A DNA stretch of 64,000 nucleotides from Candidatus Woesearchaeota archaeon. GTDB taxonomy: Archaea > Nanobdellota > Nanobdellia > Woesearchaeales > 0-14-0-80-44-23. Below, piece by piece: positions 87 to 25,129 of this stretch. The notes under the pieces were generated by a model that saw nothing but the letters and a program-made list of their open reading frames with translations, ran no database searches and was not told the origin of the DNA. The first letter of the stretch is position 1. Each line of letters opens with the position of its first letter. The stretch lies in the NCBI GenBank assembly GCA_038874135.1, contig JAVZCZ010000001.1, forward strand, positions 416,001 through 480,000, read 5' to 3'. A program made the position numbers and the translations under genes.

Positions 87-2423
87 CTACTCCCTCGCTA
101 GCTGCTTTGCAAAATTGGTTTTTATGTAATGCTTAAGCCAGCTTTCCCACTTGACAATCACTCTTTTGCTGTCTATAGAGCCAACCTCATTTTTTATCTC
201 ATCGCATATCCTGTGGAACTGGTCATTTGCAACAACAACATGCTGTGCCTCCATAAGCTCAGGAATCTTAAGCTTGTTTGCATACTGAACTATTAGCTCC
301 TTAGTTTTTGCTCTCAGAAGGATGTTGTCCCAAACAGCATCCCAGTTGCCAGCCCACTCTTTCACATTTCCAGCTATCGCCTTGAGCACGTCAGAGTCGC
401 CATTTATAAGGTCATCAGTTGGCTCCAGCTGGTCTGTCTTTGCCTGGTATTTCATAAGGTCAGAGAATCCGTTCTCAGAAAGAGGGTCGTCATTCCAGAA
501 CTTTCTAACTTCTGTAATCTGAGTAACGCGCCTCCACCTGTGCAGCTGGTCTGCACTCTTCAAGGGGTTGGCAACTATGATTATATCCGTAGCCTTAAAG
601 CTGGTCTTTGGAACTTCCAAGTCGTTAACAACCCTGTCAAACACGCCGTACGGGCTGTCTCCATGTATTGTTCCGGCAACAACATTTGCAAGAGCGCCGA
701 CCCTCATAGCCTCATAAAGAGCCCTTGCCTCTGTGGAGCGGACCTCTCCTACAATCAGGCAAGAATCTCCAAGCCTAAGAGTTGTTCTTATACCCTCATC
801 AGCAGCCACTTCTGAAGTGCCCTTAGTCATCGCACTGGCGACCTTCATTGACTGAATGTTGTAGCCAATCTGCTTTAAAGGCCTAACCGGAAGCTCCAGA
901 GTGTCCTCTATTGTTATTATCCTAAGCTTCCTCATAATCTCAGTCATGACAGAGCCGAGCAGAGATGTCTTTCCAGCAGACCTAGTACCAGCCACAAGCA
1001 TTGTTCTTGAGCCGTCTACCAAGAAGCTAATTAGTCCCGCTGCCAGCGGATTTATCATCCTGGTATTGATAAAGAGGGGAAGCGTCCAGGGCTTGTCCCT
1101 ATGCCTCCTGAAAGCATAGGCCAATCCGCTCGGGTTTAACGGCTCGGATATTACTGCAACCCTGGCGTTTGCTCCTGGGAGAGTTATCTCAGTATCTAAG
1201 ATGGGGTTTGCCTCATCCAGAGGCCTTCCCGACATCATTCTCAGCTTGGAAGCCCAAGATTCTGCTTCGCTTAGGGTTGGAATTATGTTAGTCATGCAGT
1301 CGTCAAAGTCCTGGTGCACTATGAAAACAGGACTCTGTCCCATGGGGCTGTTTATAGTTACATCCTGAATCTTATCATCCTGCAGCAGGACTTCAATAAG
1401 TCCGAAGCCCACTGTGTAACGCACAAGTATATCTGTCAGTTCATCAATCTCTTTTGTTCTAAGCTTCATGCTCTGATATGCTGCCAGTTCTTCTATAAGG
1501 TCGTGTCCTACATTGTAGAAGACGCGCCTCATACGCTCAGGATCCACAAATTCGGATTTACTGGGCTTGTGCTCTGCAATTATCTTCCTTGCAGCATCCA
1601 ACAAGTCGTACTTTTCTTCAGAGAGCTTAAATTCTGGAGGGGTCATATGGTATAATTTCTGAATTGAGTCGTTAAGCGCAAAAATTGTTATTTCAGTATT
1701 GTCTCCTACCATGTAGGTATCCAACTCCTCTGCATTCTGAGGGTAAGATGCCATGAGCTTAGTGAACATGAAATCTGGTTTTATGGTTGGAGAGAATATC
1801 TTTCTATAAACATCCCTGTTACCGAGGATGTATCCAGAAAGGTATGGCTTTGCCAGTGCAACCAACTTAGTTTTTTCAAGGGAATCCTTAAGATATGTTA
1901 AAAGGCCTATAAGCTTCTCTTCGCAGTTTATGCACTCTGTTGAGTTTGTCTTGTCCTGGTTTATTCGCTCCCTGCGAATCATCCTTGTGAGCTGAACATA
2001 CGCTCCTAAGGGATCGCTCTTTATAAGATTATAAACTATGTCGTGAAGCTCGTTGTACCAGCGCGTCACGCACTTGTTGCAGTTCGGATTAAATGAAGAG
2101 AGGTAGTGATAGCTTATCAGGTTCTTCTGCCGGACAATCTCATTGTAGATCTTTGCAATTTCTAGAAGCATCTCAACCTGGTTGTAGTCATATTCAAAAT
2201 CCCTCTTCTGAGATAGAACTATTTTAGTTGCATCCGAGTTCTCAATTAGGCGCTCCACCATAGAAGCCATACAGAAGGCGTTGTCCTCAATTGAGGGGGG
2301 ATAATTGCACTTTGAACAGTTTACTCTTAGAACATTATCCTCTCCTTCCCTCTGCATCTCAGAAGGACAATTGACACCTATCTTAGCTTCATCCACTACC
2401 AATCCCTCTTTTTCCCATGGCAA
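87..2423 (-). CDS. Type II/IV secretion (VirB11/CpaF/ArlI-like) pilus assembly ATPase with Cys-rich N-terminal extension
   Basis: Walker A GTRSAGKTS, Asp box ITIEDTLEL, Walker B LIVGEVR, His box GTIHG; N-terminal CxxC pairs. Confidence 0.92.
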   Translation of the reverse strand: MPWEKEGLVVDEAKIGVNCPSEMQREGEDNVLRVNCSKCNYPPSIEDNAFCMASMVERLIENSDATKIVLSQKRDFEYDYNQVEMLLEIAKIYNEIVRQKNLISYHYLSSFNPNCNKCVTRWYNELHDIVYNLIKSDPLGAYVQLTRMIRRERINQDKTNSTECINCEEKLIGLLTYLKDSLEKTKLVALAKPYLSGYILGNRDVYRKIFSPTIKPDFMFTKLMASYPQNAEELDTYMVGDNTEITIFALNDSIQKLYHMTPPEFKLSEEKYDLLDAARKIIAEHKPSKSEFVDPERMRRVFYNVGHDLIEELAAYQSMKLRTKEIDELTDILVRYTVGFGLIEVLLQDDKIQDVTINSPMGQSPVFIVHQDFDDCMTNIIPTLSEAESWASKLRMMSGRPLDEANPILDTEITLPGANARVAVISEPLNPSGLAYAFRRHRDKPWTLPLFINTRMINPLAAGLISFLVDGSRTMLVAGTRSAGKTSLLGSVMTEIMRKLRIITIEDTLELPVRPLKQIGYNIQSMKVASAMTKGTSEVAADEGIRTTLRLGDSCLIVGEVRSTEARALYEAMRVGALANVVAGTIHGDSPYGVFDRVVNDLEVPKTSFKATDIIIVANPLKSADQLHRWRRVTQITEVRKFWNDDPLSENGFSDLMKYQAKTDQLEPTDDLINGDSDVLKAIAGNVKEWAGNWDAVWDNILLRAKTKELIVQYANKLKIPELMEAQHVVVANDQFHRICDEIKNEVGSIDSKRVIVKWESWLKHYIKTNFAKQLARE

Positions 2424-17038: not shown

Positions 17039-19174
17039 CTAGCCAGTGGCTGAAATTCCTGAAGCCACCAGCATTTTTAGGAAAGTTGAACCTATCACGG
17101 TTACGAATACGTAGACTATAATTGCAATAAGCACATTCTTGGCTATCTCCGCATCTCTGGATATCTCATCAAAGCCGTTCTCAACGCCGTTTGCAAGCTG
17201 CGATAATAGGAACACTGCTTCTATGGTGTAGATGCCTACTAACACCTGAAATATTGGCGGGGGAGTCACCCGTGTGAAGTTTATAAATTCAGTAAAAAAT
17301 CCAGTATCCTGAGAGCCCAATGCGCTGCCTGCTAGCTTCTGCATTACGAGTTCCAATCTTCCCAACATGTCATAAAGGGATTTAATAATTACAAGGGTCA
17401 ATGAGCCTACGATTCCTGCTATGAACGGTGCTAGGAACTTTGCCTGCATCCTTACTGAGGTGACTGTCTCTTCCAACAAGTCGTATATGAGCTCTTTTAT
17501 CTTCTTCACATTGTCAAGGTAGACTGCAATCTTCTGCATTATATTGTATATAACCTGAGAGCCCTTCCTGGCGCTTTCAGTAAATATCCACATTATCTCT
17601 TTTAAGAGGGTGGACGGGTACTCTTTTATTATGCCCTCTTGAGGGTGAAAGACTGCCTGTCCAAATGTCAGCCCGAGTGTCCGCATCTTTTCAAGAATCC
17701 TATTAAAAAGGTGAAATATCTGCCTCTTTTTTAAGTTCATAACCTGATAATTGTTTACGAAGTTTTCAACTGCGATCTCAACCGGAATATTCTCTGTAAA
17801 CTGGTTTGCTATGCTATACAGAGAGGCGTTTAAATCTTCTTCAATTTCAATTATCTCGTCCCTAAGCTTTATCTTCTGAACGCTCCTTCCATAATAGAAG
17901 AGAAATATGCCAACAGCAATTCCAACGGGTATTGTCAAGGTCATAAACATAACGCTCGACTCGTATTCGTGAGCCAGGGCTGGAGGAGGCGAAGCGTTTG
18001 CCGGAAGCTTGCTGGCTTCCAGGAATACGGGAATTGTAGCAGTGAAAAGGTGAAAAAGCCCCGGGCTCATTATCAAGAGTGCAGCTAAAATGGCAACTGG
18101 GAGGACTGGAACAAGGTAAGACTTCTTTCTAACCAGCAGTCGGTATTTTCCCTTCGGAGGAAGATTAGGATTTCCAGAGATGTCTGGTGCTGAGAAAGCT
18201 CCTGGCCTCTTTGCAAGTATCCTGTTGGAAAAGAAGTATATCAGGGAGGGCAGTATTACGATGTAGCCGAAAAAGAGGTAGGATATTTTAATACTTGAAG
18301 ACATGAATACGCTTATGATTGGAAAAGCAATAAGTCCTATGAGTGGTAGCATTAAGCCGAAGGTGTTTATTATCATTATCGGATTCTTCAAGTCGTGAGC
18401 GTAGTATTTCATCTTTTCATAAGTGTCCTGGAGTAGAGTGGAAAGGGCCTTATCAAGTATTGCAGATTGGTGTTCCTTGTCCGGCTGGGTGGTTACGCTT
18501 AGAAGTATCATAAACGACTTTACAAAGTCGGGATTCCTCTTGAGCCAGAGCTCCATATAAAGTTTGAAGCCGTCGTGAATTGAGGATATCTTTCCACCAT
18601 CTAAAAGCCAGAGTATTCTCTTGAAGTCTCTGCCGAGTGGTCCATTAAGATGCTCTGTGGCAAAGGCTATTGCGTTTTCCAGCACCGGATTCACGCGCAT
18701 GTAAATTGTTATATAGAGGAGAGCTAGTAGTGATTCCTGTTGGGCTCTTATCTTGGTAATCTGACTTGAGAATGCTGGGTATGTGTAAGCTATATAAGCT
18801 AAGAACATTCCCGTGAAGATAAAGAAGAATGCCAAGTCAATCCAGCCCAGAATTATTAGAGGAAGTGCTGACATAATGCCGAGGAGCACTGTTAGGATTG
18901 CAGCTGCTAGCACCTGCTTAGGTCTTATGTGGAGCCTTGCAATTTGGATATCCTCATACATTTCCGGTTGAGATTCATCTTTTACATCTATAAAAGAAAG
19001 AAGTTTTCCTGCAAAATCAGCATATTTTTCAAAAAAAGTGGGAAGTGCAGCCTCCTCTTGCTCTTCCCGAGCAAATGAGGAAAATTGACTGGAAACAAAT
19101 TCCGACTGCTGCCCCTGCCCGGAAGCCAGCCTCTTTTTAACTTCTGCTTCTATCTCTTCAATGCTTTTAGGCAT
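17039..19174 (-). CDS. TadB/TadC (type II secretion F)-like membrane platform protein of a type IV pilus system
   Basis: 711 aa in two repeated halves (NPVLENAIAFA..GPLGRDF; NIPVEIAV) with multiple TM helices; embedded among prepilins. Confidence 0.8.
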   Translation of the reverse strand: MPKSIEEIEAEVKKRLASGQGQQSEFVSSQFSSFAREEQEEAALPTFFEKYADFAGKLLSFIDVKDESQPEMYEDIQIARLHIRPKQVLAAAILTVLLGIMSALPLIILGWIDLAFFFIFTGMFLAYIAYTYPAFSSQITKIRAQQESLLALLYITIYMRVNPVLENAIAFATEHLNGPLGRDFKRILWLLDGGKISSIHDGFKLYMELWLKRNPDFVKSFMILLSVTTQPDKEHQSAILDKALSTLLQDTYEKMKYYAHDLKNPIMIINTFGLMLPLIGLIAFPIISVFMSSSIKISYLFFGYIVILPSLIYFFSNRILAKRPGAFSAPDISGNPNLPPKGKYRLLVRKKSYLVPVLPVAILAALLIMSPGLFHLFTATIPVFLEASKLPANASPPPALAHEYESSVMFMTLTIPVGIAVGIFLFYYGRSVQKIKLRDEIIEIEEDLNASLYSIANQFTENIPVEIAVENFVNNYQVMNLKKRQIFHLFNRILEKMRTLGLTFGQAVFHPQEGIIKEYPSTLLKEIMWIFTESARKGSQVIYNIMQKIAVYLDNVKKIKELIYDLLEETVTSVRMQAKFLAPFIAGIVGSLTLVIIKSLYDMLGRLELVMQKLAGSALGSQDTGFFTEFINFTRVTPPPIFQVLVGIYTIEAVFLLSQLANGVENGFDEISRDAEIAKNVLIAIIVYVFVTVIGSTFLKMLVASGISATG

Positions 19175-19192
19175 AATACACCACTATGTTTT

Positions 19193-20995
19193 TCAAGATA
19201 CTGAAGGTTGATCTGGGGGAGGTGGAGGTGGGTTAGGCGGATTGTATGGAGGACTTGGTGGCTCGGGTGTAGGATTTGGCTCGTCCTTGTTATGAACAAG
19301 TATTCCTTCAGCATAGAAGTCATTCACGCTTTCTATGCGTTTGAGATTGTAGGTTCTTATTTTTGTAGGGCTGCACTCTAATGAGATTACCCTTTTCAAA
19401 ATAATGTTTTTCCCATCAAAACTGAATGCATAATCCCCTCTTTCAAGAGGTAATACTTTGAGATTTGGCGTCTCCCCTTTTGAATTCTCAGGAGAGATTG
19501 AAGCCCAGCCCTTTAGAGTGTATATTGGATGCTCGTCAGTAAGTCTTAAAAATGAGCCGTCTTCAAAGGATACGGTGCAAAGGTGGTCCCTATATGGAGA
19601 TTCAAGCTCCAGCACCCTTGCTGGAACATGCTTTCCAGTTTTAAAATCATAGCCGAGCACCAGCTCTCCAACTCTGACATCTTCAATATTTTTTAAGCTT
19701 CCATCAGCCATTCTTATTCTAGTTCCAGCAGGAAAACAGGAGGAAGGCGTATCACCTGTTGGCTCACAATGTTCTGGGCAGTCGCATTCGGGCTCTGGCG
19801 GGTTCGTAGTTCTGGTGAGGAATACGTGCACTAAAAGGTTGAACCTCAAATTTTCAAAACCGCTTTCAGAGATGGGATGCTGATACTTTGTGTCAGTACA
19901 GGTTATATTCATTATAAAGTCTATATTGTGCCTCTCTCCATAACCGTAGGGGGAGAATGGGCAGGTTATCAGAGTGTTAGGTTCAAGCTGTGTTCCGAAA
20001 GGAATCTCAACTTGGGGCTGCTCTGGAGGGCTTGGGATGTTCTGAGGATTTTCACATTTTCCGTCAGATTTTTGCCCGCTCAAACAGTTCTGCTTAAGAT
20101 CTGGATAAGGGCATCCTGAAGCTGGCCAGATAACTCCGCATCCTGCCGGGCAGTTTATAGCTGCGCTGCACAATATTTCGGTTTTTGCATAAAGGCATGG
20201 AAGAGTGTAGGTACACTTTACATATGAATCAAATGAGTCTTGAAGATGCTTCAATGACGAATCTGCTATTTGTTTAACATATTCCTCATTTATAACATAT
20301 GCTGGACATGCACTTGTTCCAACTCCGTAATAAGTCATAAGTTTATCACAGCTATATTGCGATACGATGTTCTGCCTAGCCCATTCCTCAATCTTCCTGT
20401 AAAGGTACCAGTAGCGCAGGGGATAAGCATATGACTTGAACGCATTCTGCTCCTGAACCTCTTCTCCAGAATCAACTTCCTTAACAACTGCTGGAATTGT
20501 ACCCCTTCCCTCAGCCAAGAAGCCTTCATCTGCGCCTGCGGAACCGTCCATCTCATAAAGGTCTGTATCTGAAACGAGTATTTCAATAGATGATATGTCA
20601 CCCGCATCTTCAATCTTAAATTTTCCAAGATCCTCTCCACGTATTGAAGCAAGATACTGGTTAGTGTAGATGATTGCAAACCGGCTAAGATTACTCTTTG
20701 CTTCCCAAAGTTTAGGCGGGATTGAAGAGGAGTAGCTTATCCAGTATGAGTTCTGAGCACCTGCTCCAGAGCTTGCGCTGTCATAGGATGCACGTATAAG
20801 AGCGTCTCTGAAAGAGTGAAAGGAGTAAGTTCTCAGAATTTCAGAGTAGCTGTTCAGCTGAGATTTCTGCTCTTGAGAAGTTGTAAATTCAACTACAGCC
20901 TTCCTATTCTGAAGATATACCAGGTAGAATATCAGAATTACAAGTGCCACGAAAAAGAGCAGCATAAATGTTGATGCGCGCCTATTGAACTTCAT
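19193..20995 (-). CDS. Prepilin-like Cys-rich protein with C-terminal Hint (intein-like) domain and Pro-rich tail
   Basis: Likely start MKFNRRA|STF at 20995 after SD GAGGTGA (ORF track starts at 21016). Contains CFPAGT...TDEHP...YNL...GILVHN. Confidence 0.85.
   Translation of the reverse strand: MKFNRRASTFMLLFFVALVILIFYLVYLQNRKAVVEFTTSQEQKSQLNSYSEILRTYSFHSFRDALIRASYDSASSGAGAQNSYWISYSSSIPPKLWEAKSNLSRFAIIYTNQYLASIRGEDLGKFKIEDAGDISSIEILVSDTDLYEMDGSAGADEGFLAEGRGTIPAVVKEVDSGEEVQEQNAFKSYAYPLRYWYLYRKIEEWARQNIVSQYSCDKLMTYYGVGTSACPAYVINEEYVKQIADSSLKHLQDSFDSYVKCTYTLPCLYAKTEILCSAAINCPAGCGVIWPASGCPYPDLKQNCLSGQKSDGKCENPQNIPSPPEQPQVEIPFGTQLEPNTLITCPFSPYGYGERHNIDFIMNITCTDTKYQHPISESGFENLRFNLLVHVFLTRTTNPPEPECDCPEHCEPTGDTPSSCFPAGTRIRMADGSLKNIEDVRVGELVLGYDFKTGKHVPARVLELESPYRDHLCTVSFEDGSFLRLTDEHPIYTLKGWASISPENSKGETPNLKVLPLERGDYAFSFDGKNIILKRVISLECSPTKIRTYNLKRIESVNDFYAEGILVHNKDEPNPTPEPPSPPYNPPNPPPPPPDQPSVS
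19289..19738 (-). other. Hint domain (150 aa), no homing endonuclease
   Basis: Block A CFPAGTRIRMADGS, block B LRLTDEHPIY, block F/G TYNL..FYAEGILVHN; the +1 residue is Lys. Confidence 0.88.
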
Positions 20996-21005
20996 AAAAA
21001 TCACC

Positions 21006-21524
21006 TCAGCCTGCAATCACAAGCAGTGCACCCCTCTCGTAGCTTCCCGAAGAGCAGGGTCTTGGAAATCTGAAATCATAGGATACATATTCAGTGAATT
21101 CTGGAGTACCAGATTCGGAGATTAAAGAGGAGGTGAGAAAAAGCGGTTTAGAGCCCTGGCTGTCTGATTTTAGGATTAGAGCCCAAGCATTTTTCCCGTA
21201 TGTGGAGTCAAGCATTGCTCGTAAAGATTGAATTATGTTTATCTGTCCATTCCCGTAGTTTGCAGTTTCCACTCCGTAACAGGAATAAACACCCAAAAGT
21301 TCTTCTATTGGGATTCCCAAAGAGTTTCCTGCTGCATCCTTGGCGGTTATGTATGGAAATGAAAATCCTGTGGAGGCAACTCCTGATACGCGCATATCTC
21401 TAAGTATTGCTTCTGCCCTGTTAAGAACAGATGCAGAGGTCTGCATCCTCACAAAGATTGCAATCAGAACTATTGTTGCCACAAGAACTATTATGCCTAC
21501 GAACTCTGAGGACTGCGCCCGCAT
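21006..21524 (-). CDS. Class III signal peptide (prepilin-like) protein
   Basis: MRA|QSSEF followed by a hydrophobic helix. Confidence 0.75.
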   Translation of the reverse strand: MRAQSSEFVGIIVLVATIVLIAIFVRMQTSASVLNRAEAILRDMRVSGVASTGFSFPYITAKDAAGNSLGIPIEELLGVYSCYGVETANYGNGQINIIQSLRAMLDSTYGKNAWALILKSDSQGSKPLFLTSSLISESGTPEFTEYVSYDFRFPRPCSSGSYERGALLVIAG

Positions 21525-22308: not shown

Positions 22309-23087
22309 CTTTCACCATTCACCTTCGCTCTTATTATCAAAAAAGCCAACACTAAAATTATACAAATTGCTACTAACGCAGCAATGAGCAGCTTGGAAGA
22401 GTTATCCTCTCTTTTCTGAATAGTTTTAATACAATCGGGATCTTTGTTTGGAGCGCAGTCAGGATCACAGATGCCGTCCTTAACCATATCGCAATAGCCG
22501 TCCCTGCTTCCAGATTTGCAGTCCTGCGGACAGCTAAGATATGTTTCAGTAGGATCGCAGACTGAGTTACCACAGCCTGAAGGGGATATGTTGATAGGGT
22601 TGGTTTCAGTTGGAGTGCTTGTGCTGCAATCTGCTGGACAGCTTATTTCACTTTCATATTTCTCACAAATGCCGTTTACTCGGCAAAAATTAGAAGTTTT
22701 AAAAGAAAAAATTTCTACACCTGATTTAAAGATTTTTATAGTGTCCGCATTGGCAAAAAAAGGAACTTTTAGTTCAATCAGAGTATTATTTGAGCTGATA
22801 GATACTGGCGGATCACTCATTATATTAAAACTAACAAAAAAGGGAAGTGAATATAACTCTTTATCTTCAGAATACACTTTTAGGTAATATTTTGTAGGAG
22901 AGTCTGTTGGAATCGTTTTATACCCTTCAAGCACTTTAGCATATGTTAAGTTTATTTCTCCAGTATTCCAGAATAAAATCTGCATGTCGTAGATTTTTTC
23001 ATATGCCAGAGTCATATCTATTGAAATAAGTAGAAATAACAAAACTGTTGCACTTATTATGAGATTTTTCATTTTCATCAGCCACAA
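22305..23087 (-). CDS. Secreted Cys-rich protein with C-terminal TM anchor
   Basis: Sec-type signal; C..NG.C...E....CP.DC twice and DGICDPDC motif; C-terminal hydrophobic helix. Confidence 0.78.
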   Translation of the reverse strand: MWLMKMKNLIISATVLLFLLISIDMTLAYEKIYDMQILFWNTGEINLTYAKVLEGYKTIPTDSPTKYYLKVYSEDKELYSLPFFVSFNIMSDPPVSISSNNTLIELKVPFFANADTIKIFKSGVEIFSFKTSNFCRVNGICEKYESEISCPADCSTSTPTETNPINISPSGCGNSVCDPTETYLSCPQDCKSGSRDGYCDMVKDGICDPDCAPNKDPDCIKTIQKREDNSSKLLIAALVAICIILVLAFLIIRAKVNGER

Positions 23088-25129
23088 TATTGTTGTATTA
23101 TTCTACTTCTTAAATAAGTATAGCTTGTGGAAGTGAATGCATATCCTTCGCTGCATCCATAACGGCATGCATCCATAGAGCACATTATGCTATCCTTTTC
23201 TGGAACATTTGGACAGCAATAAAGCTCCTCTCCTTCTGGGACATAACAATTATCGTAGCAGTCCCTTCCGCCAACAGTATACCAACCGCTAGGGCAAGAA
23301 CTGCACCTGCCTCCTCCATAACCTTCATCACAAAGTCCAAAGGTGTGTCCCATTTCGTGAGTGCACACATTAGTAATGCGAGTACCTGAAGATACGAGTG
23401 CAGGGTAGTTTAGGTAGGTATATCCGCCAATACAACTTTCTCCTTCATTATACACGCAGTCCCCTGCAACTACACCTATGATTCTATCATACTTTCCCGC
23501 GTACCCCCAGGAAGTTGCACATTGTTGTATTATGTTTAGCGCATTACCATTTCTTCTGTCAGTTTCCGATACTGGACAAATTTTAGTATCTTCAAATAAG
23601 TAGCACACTCTATCTGGACATTCCTTGAATGGACTTAGCGAAACCCAAGCGTCTCTCGCTGCCTTGGCAACATTTCCAAAGTTGCTTATAGGATCTATTT
23701 TTATAAATAACATAGTAAACGAGCAGCTGTTTTTGCATGTATTTCCATCCCAGCTTTTTCCATTTGGACAGCAAGCCTTGTCATTACTATTCTTAGGATT
23801 TGACATGCATTTCAAGCCAGAGTTGCACTCTGCATCGCACTCACACCTTTGCCCTTCTGCTTTTCCTCCTGGTGTGATGCAGTATAAGCCGTTCTGCTTT
23901 TGGCACTTTTTTGTTCCGGAGGGACAGCATCCGCTGCTTTCTGCTCCTACACAGTTTGGACAGCATTCAGCAGTGCACTTGCAGTCATTAGGAGAGTTTT
24001 GGCAGTTTTCGCTGAATGGCTCACTAGTGTTGCAGATGCCATCATTTTTGTAGTTTGTGCACGCCCCGTTTTTGTAGTAGCTGTCTGGGGGGCAGCATCT
24101 AAATGTGCCAAATCTTGTATCGCAGATTAGTTTTTCTCTATCTTGTGAGCATTGGCAGTCCTGAGTGCACTGCTGCCCCTTTGCTGATAGCTTCGTCTTT
24201 TCAATGCAGCCTCTTTCATCTAGGAAGTTTTGAATTGCTGGGCAGTCCGCCTTGCAGATCTGTGAATCTGAGCATTTGCAGTCCTGAAAGAGGGGGTAGT
24301 CTAAGCAGCTTTCTCCCCTGTTTGGCTCGCAAATGCCATTCCCCTTGTGAGGGCAGTCTGCATCATACTGGGTGCAGTCTGGATCGCAAACTCCATTGGT
24401 GCCGAGGCAGTCTGGATCACAGATGCCATCCTTAATATTGTTAGTTGCTGGGTCACAGATTCCGTCATTTTCATAGTCTACGCAGTCAATATCATAAACG
24501 CCCTTGTCAAAGTTTGTATAGCATGCTGGAATGCAGATCTTGTCTGCATCTGCAGGGTCTATTCTACCATTCTTGTTGGTGTCCAAGCAGTAGGGGTTGC
24601 ATACTGATTTTTCCATTGGACTCTTGCAAGCTGGATCGCAGATTCCGAGGGCAATACAGGCAGCATCGCACTTGTCATCTTCAAGGTTGCACTCCTCAGC
24701 TGCATTCGCCCTCGTTATTATGATGTAGTTATCTTTTTTGTAGATGTGTATGATTCCTGAGTTTTCAATATTTGATGGTATTACTACTGAGTTTCCTGGA
24801 AAGAAGTATGTTGTGCTAGTGAGGTTGTTGATTGCAAAATGAGCCAGAATCCTGTTCTGGCTAATGTTTATGGTATAGATTAGTGGGTCTTTGAGCGTTA
24901 TTACGTATTCAACATTTGCGGGAGTGGATGCTGCTTTTTCTATTGCACTCTTTAAATCCTCAACTACTGAGATTGTGTAATCAATCTCAACCTGCTTCGC
25001 CTGTTGGAGAGCCAGGTTTCTTAGGACGCCTACTATTGCAAGAGAGATGAATATCATTCCTATTATAAGGATTGAATTTGTTAAAGTGGCGCCTCTTCTT
25101 CTGGTCCGGTTATTCAAAAATATTTTCAC
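23078..25129 (-). CDS. Prepilin-like Cys-rich protein with C-terminal zinc metalloprotease (metzincin-like)
   Basis: RRRG|ATLT signal; DGICDP repeats; DTNKNGRID loop; HEMGHTFGLCDE and SIMC Met-turn. Confidence 0.82.
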   Translation of the reverse strand: MKIFLNNRTRRRGATLTNSILIIGMIFISLAIVGVLRNLALQQAKQVEIDYTISVVEDLKSAIEKAASTPANVEYVITLKDPLIYTINISQNRILAHFAINNLTSTTYFFPGNSVVIPSNIENSGIIHIYKKDNYIIITRANAAEECNLEDDKCDAACIALGICDPACKSPMEKSVCNPYCLDTNKNGRIDPADADKICIPACYTNFDKGVYDIDCVDYENDGICDPATNNIKDGICDPDCLGTNGVCDPDCTQYDADCPHKGNGICEPNRGESCLDYPLFQDCKCSDSQICKADCPAIQNFLDERGCIEKTKLSAKGQQCTQDCQCSQDREKLICDTRFGTFRCCPPDSYYKNGACTNYKNDGICNTSEPFSENCQNSPNDCKCTAECCPNCVGAESSGCCPSGTKKCQKQNGLYCITPGGKAEGQRCECDAECNSGLKCMSNPKNSNDKACCPNGKSWDGNTCKNSCSFTMLFIKIDPISNFGNVAKAARDAWVSLSPFKECPDRVCYLFEDTKICPVSETDRRNGNALNIIQQCATSWGYAGKYDRIIGVVAGDCVYNEGESCIGGYTYLNYPALVSSGTRITNVCTHEMGHTFGLCDEGYGGGRCSSCPSGWYTVGGRDCYDNCYVPEGEELYCCPNVPEKDSIMCSMDACRYGCSEGYAFTSTSYTYLRSRIIQQYCG

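Follow-up and report, generated by a model that had tools for sequence, protein, structure and literature searches.

Class 1 inteins need a Cys, Ser, or Thr at the +1 position and occupy conserved sites of housekeeping proteins. Bacterial intein-like (BIL) domains have been characterized mainly in a few bacteria and as BIL2 of the Tetrahymena BUBL locus, which to our knowledge is the one Hedgehog/intein (Hint) domain known to make lysine isopeptides. The type A BIL domains are reportedly those described by Amitai in 2003 and Dassa in 2004. They carry Cys1 and a C-terminal His-Asn with no +1 nucleophile, predominantly cleave but also splice to some extent by aminolysis, and are located in variable regions of nonconserved secreted proteins (PMC4031507, PMC7664689, PMC7765530). 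BIL2 is reported to link a C terminus to a lysine epsilon-amino group as an isopeptide and to attach the domain upstream of it to other proteins (PMC8616854), and the pretoxin Hint (PF07591) is the Hint of polymorphic toxins (Zhang 2012, PMC3482391). Here we analyzed a 64,000-nucleotide stretch of a Candidatus Woesearchaeota archaeon genome (contig JAVZCZ010000001.1, positions 416,001 to 480,000; the window), in which one gene (19193..20995, minus strand) encodes a pilin-like protein with a Hint domain between its body and a Pro-rich tail.

The gene translates without interruption into 600 amino acids plus a stop, and its product is identical to database cluster P0002. The product consists of a pilin-like N terminus and body (residues 1 to 419), the Hint domain (residues 420 to 569), and a 31-residue tail (K570 to S600) of which 15 residues are Pro. 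The body ends in ...CEPTGDTPSS, with Ser419 at position -1 to the Hint. The Hint itself, 150 amino acids from Cys420 to Asn569 (19289..19738, minus strand), was delimited by Pfam, the family alignment, an AlphaFold2 (AF2) model, Foldseek, and the DNA. Reading the minus strand directly, we located Cys420 (TGT, 19736-19738), Thr486 and His489 of the block-B TDEH motif (ACT, 19538-19540; CAT, 19529-19531), the terminal His568-Asn569 (CAT-AAC, 19289-19294), and, at +1, Lys570 (AAG, 19286-19288) rather than Cys, Ser, or Thr. The domain has the size of a mini-intein and lacks an endonuclease insert. The original prediction had described an intact Cys1, TxxH, and HN, a Lys at +1, no endonuclease, and a 31-residue Pro-rich tail, and the translation and codons bear out each of these details.

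We then compared the domain with known Hint types. The only Pfam model above its cut-off is Hint PF01079, over residues 419 to 496 (30.1 bits, cut-off 29.7); Hom_end_hint, Vint, and PT-HINT match below theirs. The AF2 model of the Hint, based on 65 nonredundant homologs, is one contiguous HINT fold with a predicted local distance difference test score (pLDDT) of 92.5, and its Foldseek matches to BILs and mini-inteins of known structure have E values of 5e-11 to 1e-8. The best match is BIL2 (TM score 0.79 by query and 0.89 by target, root mean square deviation [rmsd] 1.9 A, 23% identity), and the Clostridium thermocellum BIL 2LWY gives a target TM score of 0.86. The family profile ranks the Protein Data Bank entries similarly: Tetrahymena BUBL BIL2 at 93 bits (E 2e-25), the C. 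thermocellum BIL 2lwy at 76.7 bits (E 2e-20), the Hint inside the 1,368-residue chain 8w20 at 71.5 bits, and the best true intein at 49.6 bits.

The features of a type A BIL are present throughout: a HINT fold with blocks A, B, F, and G, Cys1 with the block-B TxxH, and His-Asn. To these are added the lack of Cys, Ser, or Thr at +1, a site in a variable linker, a patchy presence among relatives, and a greater proximity to BILs than to inteins. By the features compared, with solved BILs as the reference for sequence, the Hint at residues 420 to 569 is a type-A-like BIL. The earlier expectation that it is unlikely to splice canonically is thus upheld by the Lys at +1 and by the BIL-type profile and structure matches.

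The same Hint is common to more than 100 database proteins (E values of 1e-14 to 1e-68) that share only the Hint with our protein. The hosts are diverse, unrelated surface proteins of DPANN archaea, Thermoplasmatales, and bacteria of the candidate phyla radiation (CPR). With a query whose own last residues were HNK, a word-seeded search gave 103 proteins that together contain 143 full-length copies. Cys1 is present in all 143 and His-Asn in 137, while the +1 residue is Lys in 99, Ser or Thr in 3, and Cys in none. When the sample was reduced to 65 copies nonredundant at 60% identity, Cys1, the block-B Thr, and the block-B His were invariant, and the +1 residue was Lys in 47 (72%), Arg in 5 (approximately 8%), and some other residue in approximately 20%. 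Many copies directly follow a signal peptide or form tandem arrays with spacers of just K, KG, or KD, and 40 of the 143 are at the very C terminus, 35 of these ending exactly at HNK. The sequence around the Hints is modestly enriched in Gly, Pro, Ser, and Thr (fraction 0.36 on the upstream side and 0.45 on the downstream side; 0.30 elsewhere).

Because the query of this first sample ended in HNK, we repeated the search as a control in six frames over 301 species-representative genomes of the class, using a profile without the +1 column. Two groups were recovered. The first starts with CF, scores at least 70 bits, and has HN/K in 11 of 12 copies and Ser, Cys, or Thr at +1 in none. Its members are in varied large proteins, with open reading frames (ORFs) of 212 to 869 amino acids; these lengths are stop to stop within the fetched loci, several ending at a locus edge, and open frames reach 3,120 amino acids. 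The second group starts with CL, scores 55 to 68 bits, ends in HN/Ser in 10 copies and HN/Cys in 1, and recurs several times in near-identical ORFs of approximately 500 amino acids; these are ordinary inteins. At E values of at most 1e-8 the family profile matches 40 of the 151 genomes of the order, a count that takes in true inteins and genome G114, on which none of our conclusions depends. In the class sample, at E values of at most 1e-15, a CF...HN[K/A]-type copy of at least 70 bits is found in approximately 8 of 300 other genomes.

Several variants of the domain were seen in these searches. Approximately 40 proteins of 740 to 760 amino acids (P0067 to P0109) have two tandem Hints near the C terminus, the first ending HN/F-K-Y-G-G... 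and the second ending the protein exactly at HNK. In P0017, P0014, P0020, and P0042, two Hints are joined by K or KD alone (HNK-CCF...). A further subvariant (P0083, P0106, P0107, the second copy of P0017, and locus L035) ends in ...LVYEE or YQE, followed in the database proteins by HPP, HPK, or HRR in place of His-Asn; to judge from these residues, it has apparently lost the Asn-cyclization end and kept Cys1. Mini-inteins of the form CL...VHN/S-A/Q-...RFARIRE.. are found in a conserved protein of approximately 500 amino acids at seven loci of other genomes of the class (L032, L033, L036, L041, L044, L045, and L047), and a second intein type (..SHN/SGKSY..) is found at L037 and L039. All of these inteins are outside the window.

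Close orthologs place the Hint as a precise, sporadic insertion in the linker between the body and the Pro-rich tail. Five close orthologs (P0003 to P0007) have bodies 59 to 63% identical to ours. Of these, P0003 alone carries a Hint, in the corresponding position; in P0004 to P0007 the body runs straight into a Pro-rich tail. Gene order is alike at the Hint-less ortholog locus L002 and the Hint-bearing locus L004. A genome of the same genus (G001) has a syntenic 451-amino-acid ortholog in which the body again leads directly into the Pro-rich tail, and the orthologs in two other genomes of the same family, among species-representative genomes, also lack the Hint. Across the whole body family, only 3 of approximately 68 members have a Hint: P0001, P0003, and the distant P0140, whose Hint belongs to a different lineage and is again at the junction of body and low-complexity tail. 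In the host genome itself, neither a Hint search nor a family-profile search found a copy other than that in 19193-20995.

The Hint of this subfamily in G001 is near the C terminus of an unrelated Cys-rich protein of more than 1,466 amino acids (contig C57, L017:1-4401, plus strand). It is 51% identical over query residues 393 to 577, that is, the Hint and short flanks, and represents a different lineage within the subfamily. This copy reads ...VITP/SCFPAGT...LVHN/KGSQPSTPC..., with a 29-residue tail and the block-B Thr replaced (ISEH). Hint-less relatives of the giant protein are encoded in the window's genome as ORFs of 2,014 and 889 amino acids, 41 to 44% identical, at approximately 523 to 532 kb, outside the window. 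A separate case is P0021 (411 amino acids), a type IV pilin of the bacterial kind (KGFTFLELMIVVAV; N_methyl 25.7 bits, cut-off 21.2). Its Hint is 51% identical to ours, has Ala rather than Lys at +1, and is followed by a 21-residue tail; P0021 is an independent combination of pilin and Hint.

By eye, the only direct repeat at the borders of the insertion is the 7-nucleotide GAGCCAA on both sides, which we judged not significant, and base composition shows no sign of recent import (GC content 0.40 in the Hint and 0.44 in the body). In the Hint tree the two close-ortholog Hints are nearest neighbors, without support. Compared with the P0003 Hint (53% identity), the proportion of nonsynonymous differences (pN) is 0.30 and that of synonymous differences (pS) is 0.70. 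The synonymous sites are saturated (pS of approximately 0.7), and we therefore use only the observation that pN is below pS, not dN/dS. With a pN of 0.23 in the body, the Hint is somewhat less constrained than its host. A sporadic and decayed mobile intein had been named in advance as the outcome that would speak against a functional module. Sporadic the Hint is across orthologs, but it is not decayed, with every catalytic residue preserved and pN well below pS.

On this basis we consider it moderately probable that the domain is a mobile, endonuclease-free, type-A-like BIL inserted in an exported pilin-like protein, where it acts as an autoprocessing, optional, and shuffled module. The domain with its motifs, its family, its precise and sporadic insertion, and its conservation are established here; we infer export and, by analogy with characterized BILs, the chemistry and the ratio of products. 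After export and folding, Cys420 would attack the Ser419-Cys420 bond in an N-S acyl shift aided by Thr486 and His489, giving a thioester. Asn569, aided by His568, would cyclize and thereby cut the Asn569-Lys570 bond. With no Cys, Ser, or Thr at +1, no branched ester would form, so the thioester would mostly be hydrolyzed. The main result would then be cleavage, with the body, Hint, and tail as separate pieces, and a minor fraction might be rejoined if the freed amino group of Lys570 attacked the thioester. Whether cleaved or spliced, the mature body would resemble the Hint-less orthologs, which fits a self-removing, shuffled module tolerated in linkers. The Hint is most likely a horizontally shuffled module of DPANN and CPR surface proteins rather than a necessary part of the pilus. 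The proposal of an autoprocessing module that forms a thioester had been made from the sequence of this gene. All of the residues for thioester formation and Asn cyclization are present and conserved family-wide, in keeping with that proposal; the chemistry is expected from the behavior of related BILs.

Several points weigh against this interpretation. The activity and product ratio proposed for the subfamily are carried over from bacterial BILs. The definition of type A BILs does not include the near-invariant Lys at +1, and simple cleavage gives no explanation for it; its conservation may point to a dedicated function, nucleophilic or catalytic. Even the 40 of 143 copies at the very C terminus retain His-Asn, where Asn cyclization would free Lys alone. 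Export through a class III signal would have to accommodate Ser at +1 of the candidate prepilin site, which is outside the classical FlaFind pattern. With the maximum-likelihood (ML) tree of the body, a single gain and a gain combined with loss cannot be told apart for the six close orthologs: by the approximately unbiased (AU) test, p-AU is 0.52 for the two Hint-bearing orthologs as a clade and 0.35 for the four Hint-less ones. Finally, a module that approximately 1/10 of related genomes carry and that purifying selection preserves may be of use to its host, and "optional add-on" may be too weak a description.

Because simple cleavage leaves the conserved Lys unexplained, a ligation device is the main alternative. 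In such a device the body's thioester would be resolved by a lysine epsilon-amine instead of water, giving a covalent, sortase-like link. The acceptor could be Lys570 (isopeptide "splicing") or an amine, of lysine or otherwise, on another pilin subunit, the envelope, or a host surface. Three observations speak for it: the nearest solved relative by both profile and structure is BIL2, a reported isopeptide-former (PMC8616854); the subfamily conserves Lys, or Lys/Arg, at +1 in host proteins unrelated to one another; and pilin-like hosts recur, the archaeal body family having acquired the Hint twice independently in addition to the bacterial-type pilin. Nonetheless, we regard ligation as unlikely, though with a real chance of being right. 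Because the closest relatives have syntenic orthologs without the Hint, the pilus can do without it. Among the nonredundant copies, the +1 residue is Arg in approximately 8% and something else in approximately 20%. Many copies are behind a signal peptide or in tandem with K, KG, or KD spacing, a poor fit to dedicated tethering, and the C-terminal copies (40 of 143, with 35 ending exactly at HNK), the lack of a partner gene, and the lack of a conserved acceptor point the same way. Host tethering, which the original prediction had raised as one possibility beside release of the filament, is a special case of this idea, and it is not supported, the Hint being absent from four of five close orthologs and from the same-genus syntenic ortholog. 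For the specific version in which the +1 Lys is the acceptor, so that a CF...HNK Hint turns an upstream C-terminal thioester into a lysine isopeptide of its own or another protein, we see a slim chance.

Another alternative, an unreactive folded domain left in a tolerant linker as the decaying remnant of a mobile element, agrees with the sporadic presence among orthologs, with a low-complexity linker that may tolerate an extra domain, and with the borderline Pfam scores. It sits badly with catalytic positions that are all intact here and hardly vary among more than 140 copies, with a pN well below pS against the 53%-identical P0003 Hint, and with the confident domain model, and we find an inert passenger quite improbable. 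A canonical class 1 mini-intein with normal splicing would explain Cys1, TxxH, HN, and the small size, but we rule it out as hardly credible given the family-wide Lys at +1 and the nonconserved insertion site, a low-complexity linker in a fast-evolving surface host. The profile, moreover, ranks solved BILs above all solved inteins, and the true inteins of related genomes score lower with it and have Ser or Cys at +1. A pretoxin Hint (PT-HINT) releasing a C-terminal toxin is suggested by a weak PF07591 match and by the many relatives that carry PF07591. Here, however, PF07591 scores 16.7 bits against a cut-off of 27.7, the Hint is followed by the 31-residue Pro-rich tail alone with no toxin domain, and the next gene encodes a 711-amino-acid membrane protein, not an immunity protein. 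We therefore rejected this type as well, leaving it next to no probability.

The host protein was described as pilin-like from the outset, a reasonable label that is supported but not proven. In its favor are the signal-like N terminus, the long helix, pilin-like neighbors, and assembly genes; the structural match is weak. Residues 1 to 30 (20906..20995, minus strand) form a class-III-signal-like N terminus and the hydrophobic start of the long helix, as judged by sequence and AF2. The N terminus, MKFNRRA/STFMLLFFVALVILIFYLVYL, resembles a class III signal in outline, with a short basic stretch and then a hydrophobic helix, and a prepilin peptidase would be predicted to cleave it. Most complete body-family sequences likewise have K/R-G/A-S N termini followed by a hydrophobic stretch. 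The host protein is very probably exported.

Residues 31 to 419 (19739..20905, minus strand) form a conserved, Cys-containing alpha/beta body, based on AF2 and the orthologs. In the full-length AF2 model, a helix spans residues 6 to 75 and is followed by the alpha/beta body, mostly at pLDDT above 90, to approximately residue 410. A Foldseek search with this model matched only the Hint and returned no solved relative of the body. An exhaustive VIA comparison of the body with solved structures ranked the minor pseudopilin GspK first (Z 7.9 over 87 residues), a weak match, and other pilins at Z of approximately 5; these GspK and pilin scores, which involve residues 41 to 190, are within the chance-level range. 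An exhaustive sequence search found body relatives in 64 clusters at 50% identity. The Pro-rich, low-complexity tail at residues 571 to 600 (DEPNPTPEPPSPPYNPPNPPPPPPDQPSVS; 19196..19285, minus strand), delimited from the sequence, is followed by the stop codon at 19193-19195, and low-complexity Pro/Gly/Thr-rich tails end many complete body-family sequences.

The gene is part of a co-oriented run of similar genes, and its neighbors share the same type of N terminus. Upstream is a 172-amino-acid pilin-like protein (21006..21524, minus strand), syntenic in relatives and 65% identical to the same-position gene in L002. Downstream is the 711-amino-acid polytopic membrane protein (17039..19174, minus strand), which adjoins the gene in relatives with and without the Hint, is 78% identical in L002 and 84% identical in L004, and has no Pfam or NCBIfam match. 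At 78 to 84%, it is far better conserved than the surrounding pilin-like genes (59 to 65%). The orthologs are named Woesearchaeota in the database, and an NCBIfam search gave no informative family.

The genome, 0.91 Mb in one contig, encodes a Peptidase_A24 (prepilin peptidase), three T2SSE matches, and T2SSF matches. One of the three T2SSE (secretion/pilus ATPase) matches is an ORF of 778 amino acids at 87-2423 (minus strand), approximately 8 kb beyond the pilin-like block and separated from it by genes of both orientations. Another pilin-like protein of 683 amino acids (23078-25129, minus strand) has a very Cys-rich middle, a weak Reprolysin_5 match (E 0.003), and an HEMGH motif; a 660-amino-acid gene in L002 corresponds to it by position.

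These results extend the published picture of BIL domains in four respects: their home in DPANN, Thermoplasmatales, and CPR, the conserved Lys at +1, the kinship with BUBL BIL2, and a pilin-like host with Hint-less alleles. They delimit a subfamily with a conserved Lys where inteins carry their nucleophile, and the role of that Lys is a potentially important and testable question. A syntenic pilin-like gene with and without a precisely inserted module offers a natural comparison for deciding whether the domain cuts, rejoins, or attaches. If it attaches, minimal, host-dependent cells would have a new way to build or anchor surface structures. If the Lys is the acceptor, there would be an enzyme-free, ATP-free, sortase-like cross-linking or attachment of surface proteins outside ultra-small archaea and CPR. 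If it only cuts, these Hints would be mobile, self-removing passengers of surface-protein genes, which would explain their patchiness. Either outcome would improve the annotation of many archaeal proteins now called "Hint domain-containing." Our literature searches, whose coverage is incomplete, found neither a published description of this DPANN Hint subfamily nor a pilin with a Hint domain.

Among known systems, the host protein invites comparison with modular or large minor type IV pilins and pseudopilins such as GspK/XcpX: in its model, too, a long N-terminal helix precedes an alpha/beta head that carries extra domains. It differs in that the structural match is weak (Z 7.9, 87 residues), sequence similarity is lacking, and the N terminus is of the archaeal class III type. 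Hedgehog (Hog) proteins have in common with it a C-terminal Hint and, by prediction here, a thioester on an exported N-terminal domain, but here no sterol-recognition region follows the Hint, the end is an intein-type His-Asn, and the structural match is weaker (1at0, query TM score 0.62, rmsd 4.0). We excluded a Hedgehog-type Hint by the His-Asn end and by a Pro-rich tail as the only sequence after it, PF01079 being only 0.4 bits over its cut-off. The pretoxin Hint and the Hint of 8W20 resemble ours as Hints of secreted proteins for autoproteolytic release.

Class 1 mini-inteins, such as the splicing domains of Ssp and Npu DnaB and Mtu RecA, share the fold and the catalytic blocks A, B, F, and G. 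They are set apart by Lys570 at +1 and by the insertion site, a low-complexity linker of a fast-evolving surface protein (59 to 63% identity, compared with 78 to 84% for its neighbor). BIL2 of the Tetrahymena thermophila BUBL1 polyubiquitin-like locus (6TMM, 6Y75) has a similar C-terminal block, ...FFAnGvLvHN. BIL2, a C-type BIL, is eukaryotic and intracellular, with ubiquitin-like flanks conjugated through a Lys isopeptide (PMC8616854), whereas the flanks here are a pilin-like body and a Pro-rich tail, in which Pfam finds no ubiquitin-like domain. With type A BILs our domain shares its kind: a HINT fold with Cys1, TxxH, and His-Asn, no Cys, Ser, or Thr at +1, no endonuclease, and a place in variable parts of nonconserved secreted proteins that is patchy between close relatives. 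What distinguishes the subfamily from them is that its hosts are mainly DPANN, Thermoplasmatales, and CPR, that its Lys at +1 is strongly conserved, and that its copies are often in tandem or end in HNK.

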